Sequence record: PP418986.1
Source of the DNA: Escherichia phage UPWr_E2
Direction: 5' to 3' (one strand)
Length of the DNA stretch: 64,000 nucleotides
Part shown: positions 3,555 to 36,037 of the stretch, piece by piece
Layout of the letters: every line of letters starts with the position of its first letter
How positions within the stretch are numbered: the stretch's first letter is position 1
The notes under the pieces: model-generated
Told to the model about the DNA's origin: nothing
Seen by the model: only the letters and a program-made list of their open reading frames with translations
Databases searched by the model: none
Program-made: the position numbers and the translations under genes

Positions 3555-4670
3555 TTAAACTTCTCTAAATTCCTGTCCAAACACTTTGCCAGTTTTAGAA
3601 GAGGCTTGTGTAGGAAGTACCATTATATCTGGAGGTGAAGCCGATTCACAGACATAATTAACGCGAATACCGTTGACGCCAAATTCGGCAGGTTTTGAAA
3701 TGCCGCCATTTCTTGATACTTCAGAAAAACTTAAATTTCTCATGCCGCCTTGACCTGCTTGAGCAGTTCTTTGTGCATATATCGTAAATCCTACTGCATT
3801 TTCAGGAACAACTACATAATCTTCTTTTAATTCCCAAGACCCAGCTTGCCCAGTAAACTCAGCTTGGGTCGAGGAAATATATCCATTTGATGCATCATAA
3901 AAACGAATAGATATATTTGTAGTTCCAAGATCAAGTAAATCAGCATCAGCATATAGTTGTGCTTTAAGATAAAGAACATCACCAGGAATTAAATTGTAGT
4001 CAGAAAGTTTACTTATAGCAGCTGAAGTTGGCAATCGCGCAATTTCATTATTAGTTCCTCCAACCGCAGACATAAATTGCTCAACGCTTTCGTATGTTCT
4101 TTTAGGAAATCCTGTAGCTCCGACGTCTTCTAAACTATCAAATACAACATCTAAAATAGTTTGATAATCATCTGTGCTTTTTCTATTACTTAGTTTAACA
4201 TGCTCTAATGCAATAACTCTTTTAGAAGAAGTATAAAAAGCAGCATATGACACGTCAAATCTTGACAATACTGAATCTGATGGAAAAACTGAAGTTCCTG
4301 CTCCCCTTAACCAAGATACCACTTCAGGAGGAAAATTAACCTTTCCGCTAGTTAATATAGCAACAAGTCTATTGTTTGACAAAGAATTCATGAAACTGAC
4401 AAAAGCGGCAGATGTTGTATCGTTTGAAGCAGAAAAAGCATATGACTTGCTATCAACTAATGCTCCCGTAGAAGGGTCAAAAACTCTTAAATGAAGACCT
4501 GCACTAAATGTTTGATTTCCAACGGGATTATCCTGAAATTTAACATATGGCCCCGCAGTAGAAAGCGGGCAAGAACCCGCTATGCTTATTTTATATCTTA
4601 CTGAATTGCTTTCCGATAAAAATGGCGTTTGGACATATCCTTGTCCAAACTCTGCCATAAATTTTTCCAT
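3555..4670 (-). CDS. 35: long tail fibre hinge connector gp35
   Basis: 371 aa; MEKFMAEFGQGYVQTPFLSESNSVRYKISIAG... matches T4 gp35 from memory. Confidence 0.9.
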   Translation of the reverse strand: MEKFMAEFGQGYVQTPFLSESNSVRYKISIAGSCPLSTAGPYVKFQDNPVGNQTFSAGLHLRVFDPSTGALVDSKSYAFSASNDTTSAAFVSFMNSLSNNRLVAILTSGKVNFPPEVVSWLRGAGTSVFPSDSVLSRFDVSYAAFYTSSKRVIALEHVKLSNRKSTDDYQTILDVVFDSLEDVGATGFPKRTYESVEQFMSAVGGTNNEIARLPTSAAISKLSDYNLIPGDVLYLKAQLYADADLLDLGTTNISIRFYDASNGYISSTQAEFTGQAGSWELKEDYVVVPENAVGFTIYAQRTAQAGQGGMRNLSFSEVSRNGGISKPAEFGVNGIRVNYVCESASPPDIMVLPTQASSKTGKVFGQEFREV

Positions 4671-27454: not shown

Positions 27455-27763
27455 ATGAAACTGACAACTGAGCAGAAAGTAGCAATTCGTGAAATTTTGA
27501 AAACTAAATTGTCCATGGGTGTTTCAAACGTAGTTTTTGAAAAGTCTGACGGTACTATTCGTGTTATGAAAGGTACTCGCGATGCTGACTTTATGCCAAC
27601 CATGCAAACTGGTAAATTGACTGAATCTACTCGGAAAGAATCTACTGATATGATTCCAGTATTTGATGTTGAACTTGGTGCATGGCGAGGTTTTTCTATT
27701 GACAAATTGATTTCCGTTAATGGTATGAAAGTTGAGCATTTGCTCCAATTTATTGGTAAATAA
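27455..27763 (+). CDS. hypothetical protein (102 aa)
   Basis: ORF in same-strand array. Confidence 0.55.
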   Translation: MKLTTEQKVAIREILKTKLSMGVSNVVFEKSDGTIRVMKGTRDADFMPTMQTGKLTESTRKESTDMIPVFDVELGAWRGFSIDKLISVNGMKVEHLLQFIGK

Positions 27764-27819
27764 ATGCTTTAAGAATTATTTGTTATTATTAATTCATCTG
27801 TTAACAAAAAGGAAAAACG

Positions 27820-28155
27820 ATGTCTGAAGTACAACAGCTACCAATTCGTGCTGTCGGTGAATATGTTATTTTAGTTTCTGAACCTGCACAAGCCGGTGAT
27901 GAAGAAGTTACAGAATCAGGACTTATTATCGGTAAACGTGTTCAAGGTGAAGTTCCTGAACTGTGTGTAGTTCACTCTGTCGGTCCTGATGTTCCTGAAG
28001 GTTTCTGTGAAGTTGGTGATTTGACTTCTCTTCCAGTTGGTCAAATTCGAAATGTTCCGCATCCTTTTGTAGCTCTGGGTCTTAAGCAGCCAAAAGAAAT
28101 TAAACAAAAATTCGTTACTTGTCACTATAAAGCTATTCCGTGTCTTTATAAGTGA
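27820..28155 (+). CDS. 31: co-chaperonin gp31 (GroES analogue for capsid folding)
   Basis: 111 aa; [29 protein letters not shown]... matches T4 gp31. Confidence 0.92.
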
Positions 28156-28163
28156 TATAAATA
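28156..28163 (+). promoter_or_regulatory. late promoter box TATAAATA
   Basis: exact tataaata immediately after gp31 stop, 140 nt upstream of rIII. Confidence 0.4.
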
Positions 28164-28302
28164 ATAATATGAATTGGGTGTCGGAATAATAAGTTAACCG
28201 AACAATTCTATGTGGTAGTCTACAACTGAGAGATCTGTCGAAAGAAGATGAAATTCAGAAGAACGTGACTACCGAGTTTTAATCTCTAACGAGAATTTTT
28301 AA

Positions 28303-28551
28303 ATGATTAAACAATTACAACACGCTCTTGAACTGCAACGAAACGCATGGAATAATGGTCACGAAAACTATGGCGCATCTATTGATGTTGAAGCCGAAGC
28401 TCTTGAAATCCTGCGTTATTTCAAACATCTGAATCCTGCTCAAACTGCATTAGCTGCTGAGCTTCAGGAAAAAGATGAACTTAAATATGCTAAGCCTCTG
28501 GCTTCTGCTGCACGAAAAGCAGTTCGTCACTTTGTGGTAACACTGAAGTAA
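28303..28551 (+). CDS. rIII: lysis inhibition accessory protein rIII
   Basis: 82 aa; MIKQLQHALELQRNAWNNGHENYG... Confidence 0.85.
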   Translation: MIKQLQHALELQRNAWNNGHENYGASIDVEAEALEILRYFKHLNPAQTALAAELQEKDELKYAKPLASAARKAVRHFVVTLK

Positions 28552-28949
28552 TTTATTGGAGAGTCACTGCCTTAGTGTGAAGTTAAAACGAGGAGCCGTC
28601 GAACTGTCTGATTAATGATTTGCGAATCATTATAGTTTTAAGACCCCGGCAGTTTTACGGTGTACCTCTTGAATGTTATTCTTATAGCGGCAAGTGCATG
28701 CTACCCCGAGGTGATGGCCAATCGGGAGTACGCCTCAAGGCCTATATATCCATCAGTATATATCTTATCCTCGAGAAATCGAACCCGGAACCTTTAAGCT
28801 AACGGTGTGCAACAGATAAGAGCTATAAGGTATGATGACGGGTTTATAGTTATCCTGGTCGTTAAATATCCAAAAACTTATGTTCCCCTTGAGGGCTTGC
28901 GCAGGCAATGCCAATAAGTCCTGCATTTTCATTTAAAAGAGAATTTATA

Positions 28950-29126
28950 ATGGCAAAACAAGCTAAAGCAAAGAAAGCAGTTGAAAAGAAAGTTGGTGAT
29001 TCTAAACGCGCTGGCTACAAGCGTGGGTCGAACTCTCGTATCAATCAAACTGTTGAGAAGATCATGCGCCGAGCACGTGCGGTTCTTCGAGATGATGCTT
29101 CTCGTTTTGGTAAGCAGAAAGCATAA
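28950..29126 (+). CDS. hypothetical small basic protein (58 aa)
   Basis: MAKQAKAKKAVEKK..., Lys/Arg-rich; followed by strong terminator. Confidence 0.5.
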   Translation: MAKQAKAKKAVEKKVGDSKRAGYKRGSNSRINQTVEKIMRRARAVLRDDASRFGKQKA

Positions 29127-29130
29127 GTTG

Positions 29131-29160
29131 AGGACTCCTTCGGGAGTCCTTTTTTATTTT
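29131..29160 (+). terminator. rho-independent terminator
   Basis: aggactcc-ttcg-ggagtcct then tttttatttt. Confidence 0.8.
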
Positions 29161-29179
29161 CCAAAGATTGCATAAAGTT

Positions 29180-29209
29180 GTTTACAGTATGGTTCCTTTG
29201 TGATAGTAT
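29180..29209 (+). promoter_or_regulatory. early promoter
   Basis: -35 gtttac, 18-nt spacer, -10 tagtat preceded by tga. Confidence 0.5.
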
Positions 29210-29236
29210 TATCTTACACAAACAAAGGAGAATAAA

Positions 29237-29560
29237 ATGAAAACGATTAATCTGAACGCTGCAGTTAAAACTAAATGCTTCAATGGTAAATATGATGAAA
29301 CTATGTGGTTCTTAATGGCAGTTGAAGGTGATATTATTGAAGTAGAAACAACAGAAGGTATGGGAACAGATTTCACCTTTACAATTCAAGTTCATAATTT
29401 CTTTACTGGTTGGATTTATGAATTGAATACAGTAATCGTTGGAAAAATTGAACAAAATGAATTAGGTGAATGGTATTATGTTACAGCTCGCCAACGTGCC
29501 GAACGCTTAATTGAGAAGATGAAAAAGTTGGTAAACTTGACATGCAGCATTGGAAAGTAG
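29237..29560 (+). CDS. hypothetical protein (107 aa)
   Basis: SD aaggag upstream. Confidence 0.55.
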   Translation: MKTINLNAAVKTKCFNGKYDETMWFLMAVEGDIIEVETTEGMGTDFTFTIQVHNFFTGWIYELNTVIVGKIEQNELGEWYYVTARQRAERLIEKMKKLVNLTCSIGK

Positions 29561-29570
29561 TAAAATAATT

Positions 29571-29610
29571 GTTTACTTTGGTACAGGATATGATATTATA
29601 TACCTGTACC
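29571..29610 (+). promoter_or_regulatory. early promoter with -10 inside a hairpin loop
   Basis: gtttac -35, 17-nt spacer, tattat -10; 8-bp stem ggtacagg/cctgtacc flanks the -10. Confidence 0.45.
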
Positions 29611-29635
29611 GCAATTAAACATCTTGGAGAATAAA

Positions 29636-30001
29636 ATGAACTACATCAACTTTGAACGTAAATATGTTTCTAATGGTATTGCAGGTTCTATTGATACTAT
29701 TTGCCTTTGGAAACATCAAAATGGATCAGTATGCGAAATTGAGCAGTATATGACTCCTAATTACGTTTATATGCGATTTGAAAACGGTATCACGGTTTCA
29801 ATCACGATGGAAGGTTCCAACTTTAAAATCGCTCTGGATGATGATTTCCGTGAACGCGATTTAGGGACTCATCCTTGCTGGAATGGCGTTAATCGCAAGC
29901 TTTTGGTTAAAACTTGGATTCGTCATATTCTGAGTAACAGAGCTAAACCTGAGCATCTTGAAGCAATCTTTGATGTAGTTCTTAACGAATTTGATATTTA
30001 A
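29636..30001 (+). CDS. hypothetical protein (121 aa)
   Basis: SD ggaga upstream of ATG 29636; track start 29624 is TTG. Confidence 0.55.
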   Translation: MNYINFERKYVSNGIAGSIDTICLWKHQNGSVCEIEQYMTPNYVYMRFENGITVSITMEGSNFKIALDDDFRERDLGTHPCWNGVNRKLLVKTWIRHILSNRAKPEHLEAIFDVVLNEFDI

Positions 30002-30041
30002 AATAAATGAGGGGCTTTGGCCCCTTACTGAGGAAAATGTT

Positions 30042-30329
30042 ATGTTTATGACTACTTATTTTGATACCCGTAAAAACTTCTGCGAAGTAGTTTTCTCAAA
30101 GGCGCCTAAAGACCTTCCTGCACATTTGCAACCTACCAGTGAATCGATTAAAAACTACGTTAATGTAGTCTGCCCTTTAGAGTTCCGTACTGTAAATGGG
30201 CGCGATACTTTAGCTATCACTAAACTCAATCGTGAAATTGACATTGACCCTTCAATTGCGCGCGAAATTAATATTTCTGATATTGGTGGAGGTAATGTTA
30301 AATCGCATGGTTTTCAGATGAGGTTCTAA
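30042..30329 (+). CDS. hypothetical protein (95 aa)
   Basis: SD gagga upstream of ATG 30042, preceded by hairpin aggggc-tttg-gcccct. Confidence 0.5.
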   Translation: MFMTTYFDTRKNFCEVVFSKAPKDLPAHLQPTSESIKNYVNVVCPLEFRTVNGRDTLAITKLNREIDIDPSIAREINISDIGGGNVKSHGFQMRF

Positions 30330-30526
30330 TGAAATTCTTTTTAGATCAAACCGTTGAATTAAAGGGAGTTGGTATACCTGGATTAATTTCTAAGGTTTTA
30401 CCTGCATTTAAATTGGGAGATGTTCAAGTAAAAGAGGCTTATATTGTTTCTTGGGTAGATGGAAATGAAGACCTTCGTATGGGTGATGAATTATCTCCTA
30501 TCTACGGATTAAAGGAATTAGTATGA
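30329..30526 (+). CDS. hypothetical protein (65 aa)
   Basis: SD gaggt upstream. Confidence 0.45.
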   Translation: MKFFLDQTVELKGVGIPGLISKVLPAFKLGDVQVKEAYIVSWVDGNEDLRMGDELSPIYGLKELV

Positions 30527-30729
30527 ATATAATTAATAAGATTTTTGGAATTCAGTACATTAAGGTCACATATAAAGTAACAGATAAAAATCCATATACC
30601 GATGAACATGAAGAACCACAAATTGAGTCTATTATATTAGAAAAAGGCAGTGACTGGCCAGTTGAATTTCGTCTACCAAACTATGGTCATTGGGCTGATG
30701 TTGAAATTATAAGCATTGAAAATGTCTGA
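30523..30729 (+). CDS. hypothetical protein (68 aa)
   Basis: SD aagga upstream. Confidence 0.45.
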   Translation: MNIINKIFGIQYIKVTYKVTDKNPYTDEHEEPQIESIILEKGSDWPVEFRLPNYGHWADVEIISIENV

Positions 30730-31180
30730 GTTAGAGATTAGAAGTAATTTTAGGTGGCCATCATGTGCATTAAGTAATTTCGCCCATTGGCCTTTCGTTA
30801 TGGATGGTATTCAATTTGGAGGTCTTGAAGGATTCCTCCAAGGATGCAAGGTGAAAAACGTTGAACAACAACGTCGTATATTTGGGTTATCCGGGCTTGC
30901 CGCTCAACAAGCTGGAAGGTCTTATGCTAGAGCTCAGGACCGTGGGACCCTCTTCTGGCTTGGAGTTCCATTTTCAAGATACTCCCCGGCGTGGAAAGAA
31001 TTATGCACAAATGCATATTTTGAAGCAGCGATTCAAAACAAGGGCTTTCGTGATGCATTACAAGCCTCGAAAGGAAAAGTTTTGAAGCACAGCATGGCTA
31101 GTGGTCTAACAAAAGATGATACAATACTAACCGAAGCTGAATTTATTGATGTGTTAAACCTATTAAGAGACTCTCTATGA
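30722..31180 (+). CDS. NADAR/YbiA-like protein (putative ADP-ribose or N-glycoside processing)
   Basis: 152 aa from ATG 30722; SNFAHWPFVMDGIQFGGLEGFLQ resembles the YbiA/NADAR N-terminal motif (from memory). Confidence 0.55.
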   Translation: MSELEIRSNFRWPSCALSNFAHWPFVMDGIQFGGLEGFLQGCKVKNVEQQRRIFGLSGLAAQQAGRSYARAQDRGTLFWLGVPFSRYSPAWKELCTNAYFEAAIQNKGFRDALQASKGKVLKHSMASGLTKDDTILTEAEFIDVLNLLRDSL

Positions 31181-32016
31181 AGCCTACTATTTTAACTGAT
31201 ATTGATGGAGTATGTTTAAGCTGGCAATCAGGTCTTCCTTATTTTGCTCAGAAATATAATCTTCCGTTAGAACATATTTTAAAAATGATCCAGGATGAGA
31301 AATTTATTTCTCCAGGTAAACTCTTTAATTGTGACGAAGAACTTGGCGTCAAGCTAATTGAAAAATACAATCGTTCAGATTTTATTCGTTACTTGTCTCC
31401 ATATAAAGATGCTCTGTGTGTAATTAACAAATTAAAAGAAGATTATAATTTTGTAGCTGTTACAGCATTGGGTGATTCTATTGACGCTCTGCTGAATCGT
31501 CAATTTAATTTGAACGCTCTTTTTCCTGGTGCCTTCTCAGAAGTACTGATGTGTGGTCATGATTCTTCAAAAGAAGAGTTGTTTAAAAAGGCAAAAGAGA
31601 AATATAACGTGATTTGTTATATTGACGATCTCGCTCACCATTGCGATCATGCGAGTGAAATATTAAATGTTCCTGTTTATTGGATGGCTCGAGGAGAGCG
31701 TGACAATATTCCAAAAACTGCTCAGCGAGTTTATACATGGAATGATGTAGAAAATAAGCTTTTTCCATCGAAGGAAAATAAAGAAAGTTTTGATAGTGAA
31801 AAATCTATAAAAGATGTAATTGAAAAGATGATTAAAAACGATTCTTTTCCTTGGAACACTACCTGGAGAACTCCTGGATTTAATCCTTATAATCATCTAT
31901 ATCATCCATATCAGACGCATCCGTTTCAGACATGGAACTATATTAAACCCGGTGGCATAGAGTATTTGTATAATAGACCTACTGGTGCTAATAATATTTT
32001 CCAAGGAGCATTCTAA
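31177..32016 (+). CDS. HAD-superfamily hydrolase-like protein
   Basis: 279 aa; N-terminal TDIDGV motif (DxDx[TV]). Confidence 0.55.
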   Translation: MKPTILTDIDGVCLSWQSGLPYFAQKYNLPLEHILKMIQDEKFISPGKLFNCDEELGVKLIEKYNRSDFIRYLSPYKDALCVINKLKEDYNFVAVTALGDSIDALLNRQFNLNALFPGAFSEVLMCGHDSSKEELFKKAKEKYNVICYIDDLAHHCDHASEILNVPVYWMARGERDNIPKTAQRVYTWNDVENKLFPSKENKESFDSEKSIKDVIEKMIKNDSFPWNTTWRTPGFNPYNHLYHPYQTHPFQTWNYIKPGGIEYLYNRPTGANNIFQGAF

Positions 32017-32285
32017 TGTTTGTTGTTCACACTATTTATGAAAATGAAGGTAATACTACACGTGATTACGGTCACGTAAATCAATTTTTTAGATGCAATC
32101 CAGAATTCCGAGCTCAAAAAGACGAACGAATTTTTAAAAAATGCGTAGAGCAAGGTTTCATTTACGTCAAGCACTGGATGCAAGGAAATAAAGTTAGAAC
32201 CACGTACCACAGGTCTTTGGCTGAGCTTAATGATGAATTGATTTATAATAGAGCTGTAAACCAAACTCTAAAGGATGAACAATGA
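32016..32285 (+). CDS. hypothetical protein (89 aa)
   Basis: SD aaggag upstream. Confidence 0.5.
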   Translation: MFVVHTIYENEGNTTRDYGHVNQFFRCNPEFRAQKDERIFKKCVEQGFIYVKHWMQGNKVRTTYHRSLAELNDELIYNRAVNQTLKDEQ

Positions 32286-33745
32286 TTCTTAAAATTCTGA
32301 ACGAAATAGCATCTATTGGTTCAACTAAGCAGAAGCAAGCAATTCTTGAAAAGAATAAAGATAATGAATTGCTTAAACGAGTATATCGTCTGACTTATTC
32401 TCGTGGGTTACAGTATTATATCAAGAAATGGCCTAAACCTGGTATTGCTACCCAGAGTTTTGGAATGCTGACTATTACTGATATGCTTGACTTCATTGAA
32501 TTTACATTAGCTACTCGAAAATTGACCGGAAATGCGGCAATTGAGGAATTAGTAGGTTATATTACTGACGGTAAAAAAGATGATGTTGAAGTTTTGCGTC
32601 GAGTGATGATGCGAGACCTTGAATGTGGTGCTTCAGTATCTATTGCAAACAAAGTTTGGCCAGGTTTAATTCCTGAACAACCTCAAATGCTCGCAAGTTC
32701 TTATGATGAAAAAGGCATTAATAAGAATATCAAATTTCCAGCCTTTGCCCAGTTAAAAGCTGATGGAGCTCGGTGTTTTGCTGAAGTTAGAGGTGATGAA
32801 TTAGATGATGTTCGTCTTTTATCACGAGCTGGTAATGAATATCTAGGATTAGATCTTCTTAAGGAAGAATTAATCAAAATGACCGCTGAAGCCCGCCAGA
32901 TTCATCCAGAAGGCGTGTTAATTGATGGCGAATTGGTATACCATGAGCAAGTTAAAAAGGAGCCAGAAGGCCTAGATTTTCTTTTTGATGCTTATCCTGA
33001 AATTAGTAAAGCTAAAGAATTCGCCGAAGTAGCTGAATCACGTACTGCATCTAATGGCATCGCCAATAAATCTTTAAAGGGAACCATTTCTGAAAAAGAA
33101 GCTCAATGCATGAAGTTTCAGGTCTGGGATTATGTCCCGTTGGTAGAAATATACGGTCTTCCTGCATTTCGTTTGAAATATGATGTACGTTTTTCTAAAC
33201 TAGAACAAATGACATCAGGTTATGATAAAGTAATTTTAATTGAAAACCAGGTAGTAAATAACCTAGATGAAGCTAAGGTAATTTATAAAAAGTATATTGA
33301 TCAAGGTCTTGAAGGTATTATTCTCAAAAATACCGATGGATTATGGGAAAATGCTCGTTCAAAAAATCTCTATAAATTTAAAGAAGTAATTGATGTTGAT
33401 TTAAAAATTGTAGGAATTTATCCTCACCGTAAAGACCCTACTAAAGCAGGTGGATTTATTCTTGAGTCAGAGTGTGGAAAAATTAAGGTAAATGCTGGTT
33501 CAGGCTTAAAAGACAAAGCCGGCGTAAAATCACATGAACTTGACCGTACTCGTATTATGGAAAACCAAAATTATTATATTGGAAAAATTCTAGAGTGCGA
33601 ATGCAACGGTTGGTTAAAATCTGATGGCCGCACTGATTACGTTAAATTATTTCTTCCGATTGCGATTCGTTTACGTGAAGATAAAACTAAAGCTAATACA
33701 TTCGAGGATGTATTTGGTGATTTTCATGAGGTAACTGGTTTATGA
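32282..33745 (+). CDS. 30: ATP-dependent DNA ligase
   Basis: 487 aa; MILKILNEIASIGSTKQKQAILEKNKDNELLKRVYRL... matches T4 DNA ligase. Confidence 0.95.
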   Translation: MILKILNEIASIGSTKQKQAILEKNKDNELLKRVYRLTYSRGLQYYIKKWPKPGIATQSFGMLTITDMLDFIEFTLATRKLTGNAAIEELVGYITDGKKDDVEVLRRVMMRDLECGASVSIANKVWPGLIPEQPQMLASSYDEKGINKNIKFPAFAQLKADGARCFAEVRGDELDDVRLLSRAGNEYLGLDLLKEELIKMTAEARQIHPEGVLIDGELVYHEQVKKEPEGLDFLFDAYPEISKAKEFAEVAESRTASNGIANKSLKGTISEKEAQCMKFQVWDYVPLVEIYGLPAFRLKYDVRFSKLEQMTSGYDKVILIENQVVNNLDEAKVIYKKYIDQGLEGIILKNTDGLWENARSKNLYKFKEVIDVDLKIVGIYPHRKDPTKAGGFILESECGKIKVNAGSGLKDKAGVKSHELDRTRIMENQNYYIGKILECECNGWLKSDGRTDYVKLFLPIAIRLREDKTKANTFEDVFGDFHEVTGL

Positions 33746-33930
33746 AAGCTTACTTAGAAACAATTGTCATTGCTCAAAAAGAAGGTGGAGATGTTTCTAC
33801 TTCTGTATCACAAGTCATTCTCGAATTTGTAGATGCATACGCTTATAATAAATTTACAGAAACATTTGATGCCTATGAAAAAGGACCAAAGTTTGAAATA
33901 TATCGTACTCTCTTACCACTAGATTACTAA
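33742..33930 (+). CDS. hypothetical protein (62 aa)
   Basis: SD gaggt upstream. Confidence 0.5.
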   Translation: MKAYLETIVIAQKEGGDVSTSVSQVILEFVDAYAYNKFTETFDAYEKGPKFEIYRTLLPLDY

Positions 33931-33955
33931 AGGCCTTCGGGCCTTTAATTTTATA
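33931..33955 (+). terminator. hairpin plus U-rich tract
   Basis: aggcc-ttcg-ggcct then ttaatttta. Confidence 0.55.
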
Positions 33956-33959
33956 AATA
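33952..33959 (+). promoter_or_regulatory. late promoter box TATAAATA upstream of the Alt-like genes
   Basis: exact tataaata 21 nt upstream of ATG 33980. Confidence 0.5.
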
Positions 33960-33979
33960 GAATAAACACTAGAGAGGCT

Positions 33980-36037
33980 ATGATGGAACTTATTACAGAA
34001 TTATTTGACGAAGATACTACTCTTCCGATTACAAACTTAAATCCAAAGAAGAAAATACCGCAAATTTTTTCAGTTCATGTTGATGATGCAATTGAACAAC
34101 CAGGCTTTCGTTTATGTACCTATACATCTGGAGGTGATACTAATCGCGATTTAAAAATGGGCGATAAAATGATGCATATTGTTCCTTTTACATTAACTGC
34201 TAAAGGTTCAATTGCTAAATTAAAAGGTCTTGGTCCAAGCCCAATTAATTATATCAATTCAGTTTTTACTGTTGCAATGCAAACAATGCGTCAGTATAAA
34301 ATTGATGCTTGTATGCTTCGTATTCTTAAGTCTAAAACCGCTGGTCAAGCTCGACAAATTCAAGTTATTGCTGATAGACTTATCCGTAGTCGTTCAGGTG
34401 GCAGATACGTCCTTCTTAAGGAACTCTGGGATTACGATAAAAAGTATGCATATATTCTTATACATCGCAAAAATGTATCACTAGAAGACATTCCGGGAGT
34501 TCCGGAAATTAGTACTGAGCTCTTTACTAAAGTTGAATCGAAGGTCGGTGATGTTTATATCAATAAAGATACTGGAGCTCAAGTAACTAAAAATGAGGCA
34601 ATTGCAGCATCTATTGCGCAAGAAAATGATAAACGTTCTGACCAAGCTGTAATCGTTAAAGTTAAAATTTCCCGTAGAGCAATTGCGCAAAGTCAATCAT
34701 TGGAATCTTCTAGATTTGAAACGCCGATGTTTCAAAAATTTGAGGCTTCAGCAGCAGAATTAAATAAACCTGCTGACGCTCCTTTAATTTCTGACGCTAA
34801 TGAATTAACTGTTATTTCTACTTCAGGATTTGCATTAGAGAATGCTCTTAGTAGTGTTACAGCTGGAATGGCATTCAGAGAAGCTTCTATAATTCCTGAA
34901 GATAAAGAATCTGATGTTAATGCAGAAATAAAAAATAAAGCTTTAGAAAGATTACGAAAAGAATCTATTACTTCAATAAAAACTTTAGAAACTATTGCTT
35001 CTATAGTTGATGATACTTTAGAAAAATATAAAGGTGCTTGGTTAGAAAGAAACATTAACAAGCATTCGCATTTAAATCAAGATGCTGCGAATGAGTTAGT
35101 ACAAAATTCTTGGAATGCAATAAAAACAAAGATTATTCGAAGAGAATTGCGTGGATATGCTCTTACCGCTGGATGGTCACTACATCCTATAGTCGAAAAT
35201 AAAGATTCATCTAAATACACACCGGCACAAAAACGCGGAATTCGTGAATACGTAAGTTCAGGATATGTAGACATAAATAACGCTCTTTTGGGATTATATA
35301 ATCCAGATGAGCGTACAAGTATTTTGACAGCATCTGATATAGAAAAAGCTATTGATAATTTAGATTCTGCCTTTAAAAATGGTGAACGATTACCAAAAGG
35401 TATTACTTTGTATCGTTCACAACGAATGTTACCTTCAATATATGAAGCACTGGTAAAAAATCGAGTTTTTTATTTTAGAAATTTTGTGTCAACATCATTA
35501 TATCCAAATATTTTTGGTACCTGGATGACTGATTCATCTGTGGGTGTTTTACCAGACGAAAAGCGTTTAAGTGTTTCTATTGATAAAACTGATGAAGGAC
35601 TAGTAAATTCTAGCGATAATTTAGTTGGAATTGGATGGGTTATTACTGGGGCTGATAAAGTCAATGTTGTTTTACCAGGTGGAAGTTTAGCACCTTCAAA
35701 TGAAATGGAAGTCATTTTGCCACGTGGATTAATGGTCAAAGTTAATAAAATAACCGATGCATCTTACAATGATGGAACAGTTAAAACTAACAACAAGCTT
35801 ATTCAAGCTGAAGTTATGACCACAGAAGAACTCACCGAATCGGTAATTTATGACGGTGACCGTCTAATGGAAACCGGCGAAGTAGTTACAATGACAGGTG
35901 ATATTGAAATAGAAGACAGAGTTGATTTTGCATCATTTGTTTCATCAAATGTTAAACAGAAAGTAGAATCATCTCTTGGAATTATTGCGTCTTGTATAGA
36001 TATTGCAAACATGCCTTACAAGTTCGTTCAAGGATAA
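33980..36037 (+). CDS. alt: Alt-like mono-ADP-ribosyltransferase, paralog A
   Basis: 685 aa; Arg (TLYRSQR), STS (FVSTSL) and ExE (EMEVILPRG) ART motifs; N-terminus MELITELFD. Confidence 0.8.
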   Translation: MMELITELFDEDTTLPITNLNPKKKIPQIFSVHVDDAIEQPGFRLCTYTSGGDTNRDLKMGDKMMHIVPFTLTAKGSIAKLKGLGPSPINYINSVFTVAMQTMRQYKIDACMLRILKSKTAGQARQIQVIADRLIRSRSGGRYVLLKELWDYDKKYAYILIHRKNVSLEDIPGVPEISTELFTKVESKVGDVYINKDTGAQVTKNEAIAASIAQENDKRSDQAVIVKVKISRRAIAQSQSLESSRFETPMFQKFEASAAELNKPADAPLISDANELTVISTSGFALENALSSVTAGMAFREASIIPEDKESDVNAEIKNKALERLRKESITSIKTLETIASIVDDTLEKYKGAWLERNINKHSHLNQDAANELVQNSWNAIKTKIIRRELRGYALTAGWSLHPIVENKDSSKYTPAQKRGIREYVSSGYVDINNALLGLYNPDERTSILTASDIEKAIDNLDSAFKNGERLPKGITLYRSQRMLPSIYEALVKNRVFYFRNFVSTSLYPNIFGTWMTDSSVGVLPDEKRLSVSIDKTDEGLVNSSDNLVGIGWVITGADKVNVVLPGGSLAPSNEMEVILPRGLMVKVNKITDASYNDGTVKTNNKLIQAEVMTTEELTESVIYDGDRLMETGEVVTMTGDIEIEDRVDFASFVSSNVKQKVESSLGIIASCIDIANMPYKFVQG

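Follow-up and report, generated by a model that had tools for sequence, protein, structure and literature searches.

The 152-aa protein encoded at positions 30722 to 31180 is very probably a DNA ADP-ribosylglycohydrolase of the T4 type that acts against the DarTG1 defense system. Sequence comparison identifies its gene as the ortholog of T4 gene 30.3, adfN ("anti-DarT factor NADAR"), in the 64,000-nucleotide stretch of the Escherichia phage UPWr_E2 genome (PP418986.1) that was analyzed here and that we call the window. This function is already known and published down to the catalytic residues, and is not a new idea: for T4 gene 30.3, a NADAR domain was predicted in 2023, in vitro activity was described in 2024, and the anti-DarTG1 role of AdfN followed in 2024-2025. 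The practical value lies in the confident annotation of a gene that is mostly recorded as hypothetical, and whose function is missed by standard single-sequence scans (Pfam NADAR, NCBIfam, and PADLOC). The phage is a candidate therapeutic-type Tequatrovirus, and an intact adfN allele would predict its resistance to DarTG1-carrying hosts. Gene identity, the predicted NADAR fold, intact catalytic residues and C terminus, and synteny are established in this analysis; that the present allele, with its three substitutions, behaves as T4 AdfN is what we infer from orthology and 98% identity.

The open reading frame that a sequence-only reading had proposed is borne out by the ORF and its translation, from the ATG at its first position through the stop codon (Table 1). 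An in-frame TTG at 30716, two codons before this ATG, is a possible alternative start; the T4 and phage Shinka annotations both use the ATG for gene 30.3. On the opposite strand of this region there is no open frame, and stops are numerous. A tblastn search recovered the gene from 1510 phage records; T4-like phages whose hosts are Escherichia, Klebsiella, Shigella, Aeromonas, Acinetobacter, and Vibrio predominate. This distribution, together with a Pfam PF08010 score of 230.9 bits, argues that adfN is a genuine conserved gene. Its label is "hypothetical protein" in most of these records; a single one, that of phage Shinka, names the product "NADAR domain containing protein."

The match to PF08010 (Phage_30_3, "Bacteriophage protein GP30.3") has an E value of 5e-69 and spans profile positions 1 to 138 of 138, against a gathering cutoff of 36 bits. 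The product is also assigned to PHROG 652, which carries no functional assignment. Alignment with T4 gp30.3 (NP_049816) gave 149 identical residues out of 152 (98%) at equal length and without gaps, and at the DNA level the two genes are separated by zero indels. The allele differs from T4 AdfN by Q22H, Y95C, and I125M, all of which lie outside the invariant and nearly invariant columns of a 57-member family alignment, and M125 is the family consensus residue. Phage JB75 encodes a protein identical to the one described here. As in T4, adfN is situated between genes 30.4 and 30.2 and upstream of the ligase and alt genes, its start and stop overlap the flanking genes in the same way, and residues E36, K43, and H123 are shared.

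Table 1. Positions in the window of adfN, its functional elements, and neighboring features
Feature	Positions	Strand	Basis or remark
adfN (gene 30.3) CDS, 152 aa plus stop	30722..31180	+	ORF and translation, Pfam, T4 alignment
NADAR signature, residues 18-40, SNFAHWPFVMDGIQFGGLEGFLQ	30773..30841	+	Family alignment, YbiA match
Glu36 codon (GAA), catalytic glutamate by T4 mutant data	30827..30829	+	Invariant in 57 homologs
Lys43 codon (AAG), catalytic lysine by T4 mutant data	30848..30850	+	Conserved in at least 90% of 57 homologs
His123 codon (CAC), phage-type NADAR marker	31088..31090	+	Invariant in 57 homologs
C-terminal helix, residues 138-151, intact	31133..31174	+	High-confidence prediction; no frameshift relative to T4
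Gene 30.4, 68 aa	30523..30729	+	End overlaps adfN start by 8 nt; PHROG 2042, no function assigned
Gene 30.2, 279 aa, predicted HAD-fold hydrolase	31177..32016	+	ATG overlaps adfN stop (ATGA); same operon
DNA ligase, ATP-dependent	32282-33745	+	Between adfN and alt
alt, full-length Alt-like ADP-ribosyltransferase, 685 aa	33980-36037	+	2.8 kb downstream of adfN
ORF 30.3', 75 aa in T4	30858-31085	+	Other frame inside gene 30.3
72-aa ORF at the 30.9 position	28908-29126	+	
Sigma-70-like site (TTGACA, 18 nt, TAAAAT)	29537-29566	+	Near consensus; just 5' of gene 30.7
GC-rich hairpins with T-runs, terminator-like	29130-29151, 33928-33947	+	Flank the 30.8-to-alt.1 block that holds adfN

The genome region is that of a Tequatrovirus. 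The 3 kb around adfN are 100% identical to Yersinia phage PYps55T, which was isolated on Yersinia pseudotuberculosis, whereas T4 was isolated on E. coli, and are 98 to 99.6% identical to many Escherichia and Yersinia Tequatroviruses. Gene order is that of T4 (31, rIII, 30.9 to 30.4, 30.3, 30.2, 30.1, the DNA ligase gene 30, alt.1, and alt), in keeping with the earlier description of adfN as part of a cluster of small genes. Because its start and stop overlap both flanking genes, adfN is part of a compact operon whose genes all run on one strand, and the overlap with gene 30.4 reads as probable translational coupling. Farther downstream, an enzyme that adds ADP-ribose (Alt) is encoded near one that would remove it, with the ligase between them; the Alt encoded here is 98.6% identical to T4 Alt over its first 502 residues, the portion covered by the T4 locus that we compared. 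Acinetobacter phage KARL-1 keeps this neighborhood of NADAR gene, ligase, and alt, and there alt is encoded on the other strand.

That the product is a NADAR/YbiA-like protein had been proposed from signature-like residues, with an HMM search and structure prediction suggested as checks. The results of these checks were divided. Pfam treats gp30.3 as a family separate from NADAR, and a scan of the AdfN sequence alone against Pfam returned only Phage_30_3, with no match to NADAR PF08719 (formerly DUF1768) even at E<=10. An NCBIfam scan and the PADLOC defense and antitoxin models likewise gave no match to this sequence, and phmmer against PDB sequences returned only noise. Positive results, in contrast, came from the family profile, the predicted structure, and the fold search. 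A profile built from 57 full-length homologs (35 to 98% identity) had E. coli YbiA (2b3w) as its top match among PDB sequences, with an E value of 0.005 over the signature region, and 8 of the 57 family members matched PF08719 individually (best, 1.5e-7). An AlphaFold2 model of AdfN, run on the family alignment without the T4 row, had a pLDDT of 93.2 and a pTM of 0.88. The top three Foldseek matches of this model in the PDB were YbiA, the Phytophthora nicotianae NADAR-ADP-ribose complex (8bau), and the DarT1-linked NADAR of Geobacter lovleyi (8bat); every match beyond these had an E value above 2. The profile matches, the confident model, and the Foldseek top three together confirm the predicted NADAR fold independently of the literature. 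As the single-sequence scans came back empty, sequence-level membership of AdfN in the NADAR group rests on its relatives and on structure. The sequence-only reading had named the absence of any significant HMM or structural match as the outcome that would speak against it, and this was narrowly avoided, by way of the match of the predicted structure.

The N-terminal segment SNFAHWPFVMDGIQFGGLEGFLQ had been read as resembling a NADAR signature, and correctly so. In the search of the family profile against the PDB, the signature region aligns to "SNFAAWPIKVDG...SEHYFQAQKF" of YbiA, pairing the SNFA...DG motif with its YbiA counterpart and the Glu and Lys of "EGFLQ..K" with those of "SEHYFQAQKF." S18, N19, F20, F25, E36, G37, F38, and Q40 are invariant across the 57 family members. 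In NADARs, a Glu and a Lys 7 residues apart contact ADP-ribose (E88 and K95 in the E. coli C7 NADAR; PMC11543638), and the spacing between Glu36 and Lys43 is the same. His123 closes the last predicted beta-strand (residues 120 to 123 of the model). The residue in this strand differs by subfamily, being Glu in YbiA-type proteins, Asp in DarT1-linked NADARs, and His in phage NADARs (PMC11543638 and PMC12945103).

The case for function comes from published work on the T4 protein and its relatives. NADARs were described as guanine-specific DNA ADP-ribosylglycohydrolases that serve as antitoxins to DarT1, with a phage subfamily bearing His noted at the time (Schuller et al. 2023, PMC11543638). Purified T4 gp30.3 hydrolyzes guanosine-ADPr, and not thymidine-ADPr, in vitro, and its expression in cells gave no rescue from DarT1 toxicity (Toxins 2024, PMC11125620). 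Phage crosses then identified gene 30.3, renamed adfN, as the determinant of DarTG1 resistance in T-even phages (Johannesman et al., bioRxiv 2024, PMC11257639; also published as Nat Commun 2025, 16:1598, as cited in PMC12945103). According to that work, deletion of adfN from T4 or T2 reduces plaquing on DarTG1 cells by ~4 logs, adfN supplied in trans fully rescues RB69 on a DarTG1 host, and the gene is necessary and sufficient for DarTG1 resistance in T-even phages. In RB69, whose allele is inactive, one extra nucleotide at position 411 of the gene removes the last 15 residues (PMC11257639); there is no indel at that site in the adfN described here. Phages JN02 and UFV09 were considered as carriers of similarly truncated alleles, as their matches covered residues 1 to 144 only; both have full-length 459-nt genes with divergent C termini.

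E36A and K43A each abolish T4 AdfN function, and the purified protein strips ADP-ribose from DarT1-modified DNA, shows no interaction with DarT1 in a two-hybrid assay, and has no effect against DarTG2 (PMC11257639). In a separate transposon screen, adfN insertions were wholly depleted on a DarTG1 host (bioRxiv 10.1101/2025.11.20.689424). The T4 enzyme has since been used as the representative of phage NADARs in a study in which all NADARs tested hydrolyzed guanosine-ADPr (2026, PMC12945103). The activity of T4 AdfN is also restricted in setting: it works in T-even infection, is of little benefit to phages whose DNA is unmodified, and does not rescue uninfected cells from DarT1, the last being a published negative outcome of the rescue test that the sequence-only reading had proposed (PMC11257639 and PMC11125620). 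The published options for this restriction are a preference for hydroxymethyl-cytosine DNA and a missing phage cofactor.

Given a 98%-identical T4 protein with experimentally demonstrated anti-DarTG1 activity, the proposed removal of ADP-ribose from guanine and countering of a DarT-type toxin are well supported. In our best explanation, AdfN would be an early-expressed ADP-ribosylglycohydrolase with a NADAR fold, reduced to a single minimal domain. On infection of a DarTG1 host, the DarT1 toxin would ADP-ribosylate guanine (at N2) in phage DNA and so block its replication. AdfN would hydrolyze the N-glycosidic bond of guanine N2-ADP-ribose by means of Glu36, Lys43, and the last-strand His123, and replication would proceed on the cleaned phage DNA. 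The protein would do so without binding the toxin, as a phage-borne "orphan antitoxin."

AdfN differs in several respects from the DarG1 antitoxins, exemplified by the E. coli C7 NADAR and the G. lovleyi NADAR. These are toxin-linked, whereas no DarT1 toxin gene was found beside adfN, which is flanked by 30.4 and 30.2; the nearest ADP-ribosyltransferase gene is alt, whose product, unlike DarT1, is a protein-targeting enzyme. DarG1 also has an N-terminal extension and a catalytic Asp in the last strand, whereas AdfN consists of the core domain only and has a His in that strand. With no adjacent DarT1, no such extension, and no such Asp, AdfN appears from sequence and gene setting to fall outside the DarG1 group, and T4 AdfN cannot substitute for DarG1 in uninfected cells. 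Other anti-DarT factors of T-even phages, AdfA (gp61.2) and AdfM (Tk.4), belong to the same arms race against DarTG. AdfA(R164H) lacks any recognizable enzymatic domain and gives a two-hybrid interaction with DarT1, and AdfM is a macrodomain protein directed against DarTG2 (thymine-ADPr). AdfN is enzymatic, guanine-specific, and, on the T4 data, inactive against DarTG2.

It is conceivable, although we consider it unlikely, that AdfN has a further or ancestral function on RNA, for example the clearing of guanosine-ADP-ribose that host toxins attach to tRNA or mRNA, or that its restriction to T-even infection depends on a co-transcribed partner, for example gp30.2, rather than on a preference for hydroxymethyl-cytosine. 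The gp30.2 protein has no Pfam match even at E<=10 and belongs to a PHROG of unknown function. Its sequence contains HAD motif I (TDIDGV), with D8, D10, K132, D150, and D151 invariant, and its family profile has a 5'(3')-deoxyribonucleotidase as best PDB match (E = 0.013). The model of gp30.2, with pLDDT above 90 for residues 1 to 190, matches many HAD hydrolases and phosphatases, among them cytosolic and mitochondrial deoxyribonucleotidases with target-normalized TM scores of 0.64 to 0.71; the last ~80 residues, rich in Tyr, Pro, and Asn, are modeled with low confidence or disordered. These features predict a deoxyribonucleotidase-like hydrolase of the HAD fold. In favor of a cofactor role, gp30.2 is start/stop-coupled to adfN and, in both KARL-1 and RB43, has the NADAR gene on one side and the ligase on the other. 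On the other side, it is absent within 4 kb of the homolog in four more distant phages (Aeromonas 31.2, CcrColossus, Vibrio K566, and RSP15), and gene 30.2 receives no mention in the DarTG1 transposon-screen paper (bioRxiv 10.1101/2025.11.20.689424). Among the homolog loci compared, gp30.4 is confined to close relatives. Either protein as an obligatory AdfN partner in general was rejected, as 30.4 occurs only in close relatives and 30.2 is missing from the four distant phages, and the linkage of gp30.2 to adfN suggests nothing beyond a shared operon history.

Some distant homologs of gp30.3 occur in other surroundings. In Aeromonas phage 31.2 and Ralstonia phage RSP15, the homolog (4001-4460 of each locus) lies inside tRNA gene arrays, and in Caulobacter phage CcrColossus (4001-4460 of the locus) an RNA ligase is encoded two genes away from it; in all three, the NADAR gene is away from the DNA ligase and alt. 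The tRNA arrays and RNA ligase hint at an RNA-related context for some members of the family. It has been suggested from comparative genomics, before the experiments were done, that phage NADARs act on small soluble ADP-ribose derivatives, such as immune signals or toxins of the cADPR type and by-products of RNA repair, rather than in cleaning DNA (PMC9503650). The distant loci would be compatible with such a role, as would the removal of guanosine-ADPr from RNA by NADARs in vitro (PMC12945103). As the main role of AdfN we regard this as very unlikely, because the T4 protein has a DarTG1 phenotype, dead catalytic mutants, and direct ADP-ribose removal from DNA, and no soluble substrate has been demonstrated for it. 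Because of the contexts of the distant homologs and the in vitro activity on RNA, a soluble-ADPr or RNA-repair role keeps some life as a secondary function beside the anti-DarTG1 activity.

Alt and the Mod proteins modify arginine in proteins. The co-location and co-expression of adfN with alt in T4-like phages could suggest that AdfN reverses or tunes the ADP-ribosylation carried out by the phage's own Alt and ModA/ModB, and this we hold to be extremely unlikely: with arginine in proteins as the Alt and Mod target, all NADAR activity tested concerns N-glycosidic bonds to bases (guanine and, in some families, cytidine), the phenotype of the T4 enzyme is directed at a host toxin, and in distant phages the gene is no longer linked to alt. 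For cytidine-ADPr, the summary table of PMC12945103 lists erasers in the NADAR and YbiA-type families only. There is next to no chance that AdfN serves a housekeeping role as a YbiA-type N-glycosidase of riboflavin-pathway intermediates, since YbiA, while among the best profile and structural matches, shares only 18 to 20% identity with AdfN (as does the P. nicotianae NADAR), the Glu in the last strand that defines the YbiA-type proteins of riboflavin metabolism is replaced by His, YbiA gives no protection against DarT1 in cells (PMC11125620), and a phage has no evident need for such an enzyme where the published phenotype is anti-defense.

Several minor features of the region were noted as well. 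Early expression of gene 30.3 is taken from the literature; within 27500-34200, a promoter scan found 22 sigma-70-like sites compared with 23.6 expected by chance from shuffled sequence, which is no excess, and one near-consensus site precedes gene 30.7 (Table 1). Terminator-like hairpins stand on either side of the 30.8-to-alt.1 block. The region of ORF 30.3', nested in another frame of gene 30.3, matches its own Pfam family, DUF2883 (E = 7e-51). The T4 ATG of 30.3' is ACG (30858-30860) here and in Shinka, a change that is synonymous in adfN, and only a TTG at 30861 remains as a start candidate, which weakens the case for 30.3' as a real gene, as judged from these start codons. Finally, the ORF at the 30.9 position carries the label "1,4-alpha-glucan branching enzyme, GH-13-type" in Shinka; because the protein has only 72 aa and no Pfam match, this label is implausible, probably a mistaken annotation that has spread through public records.
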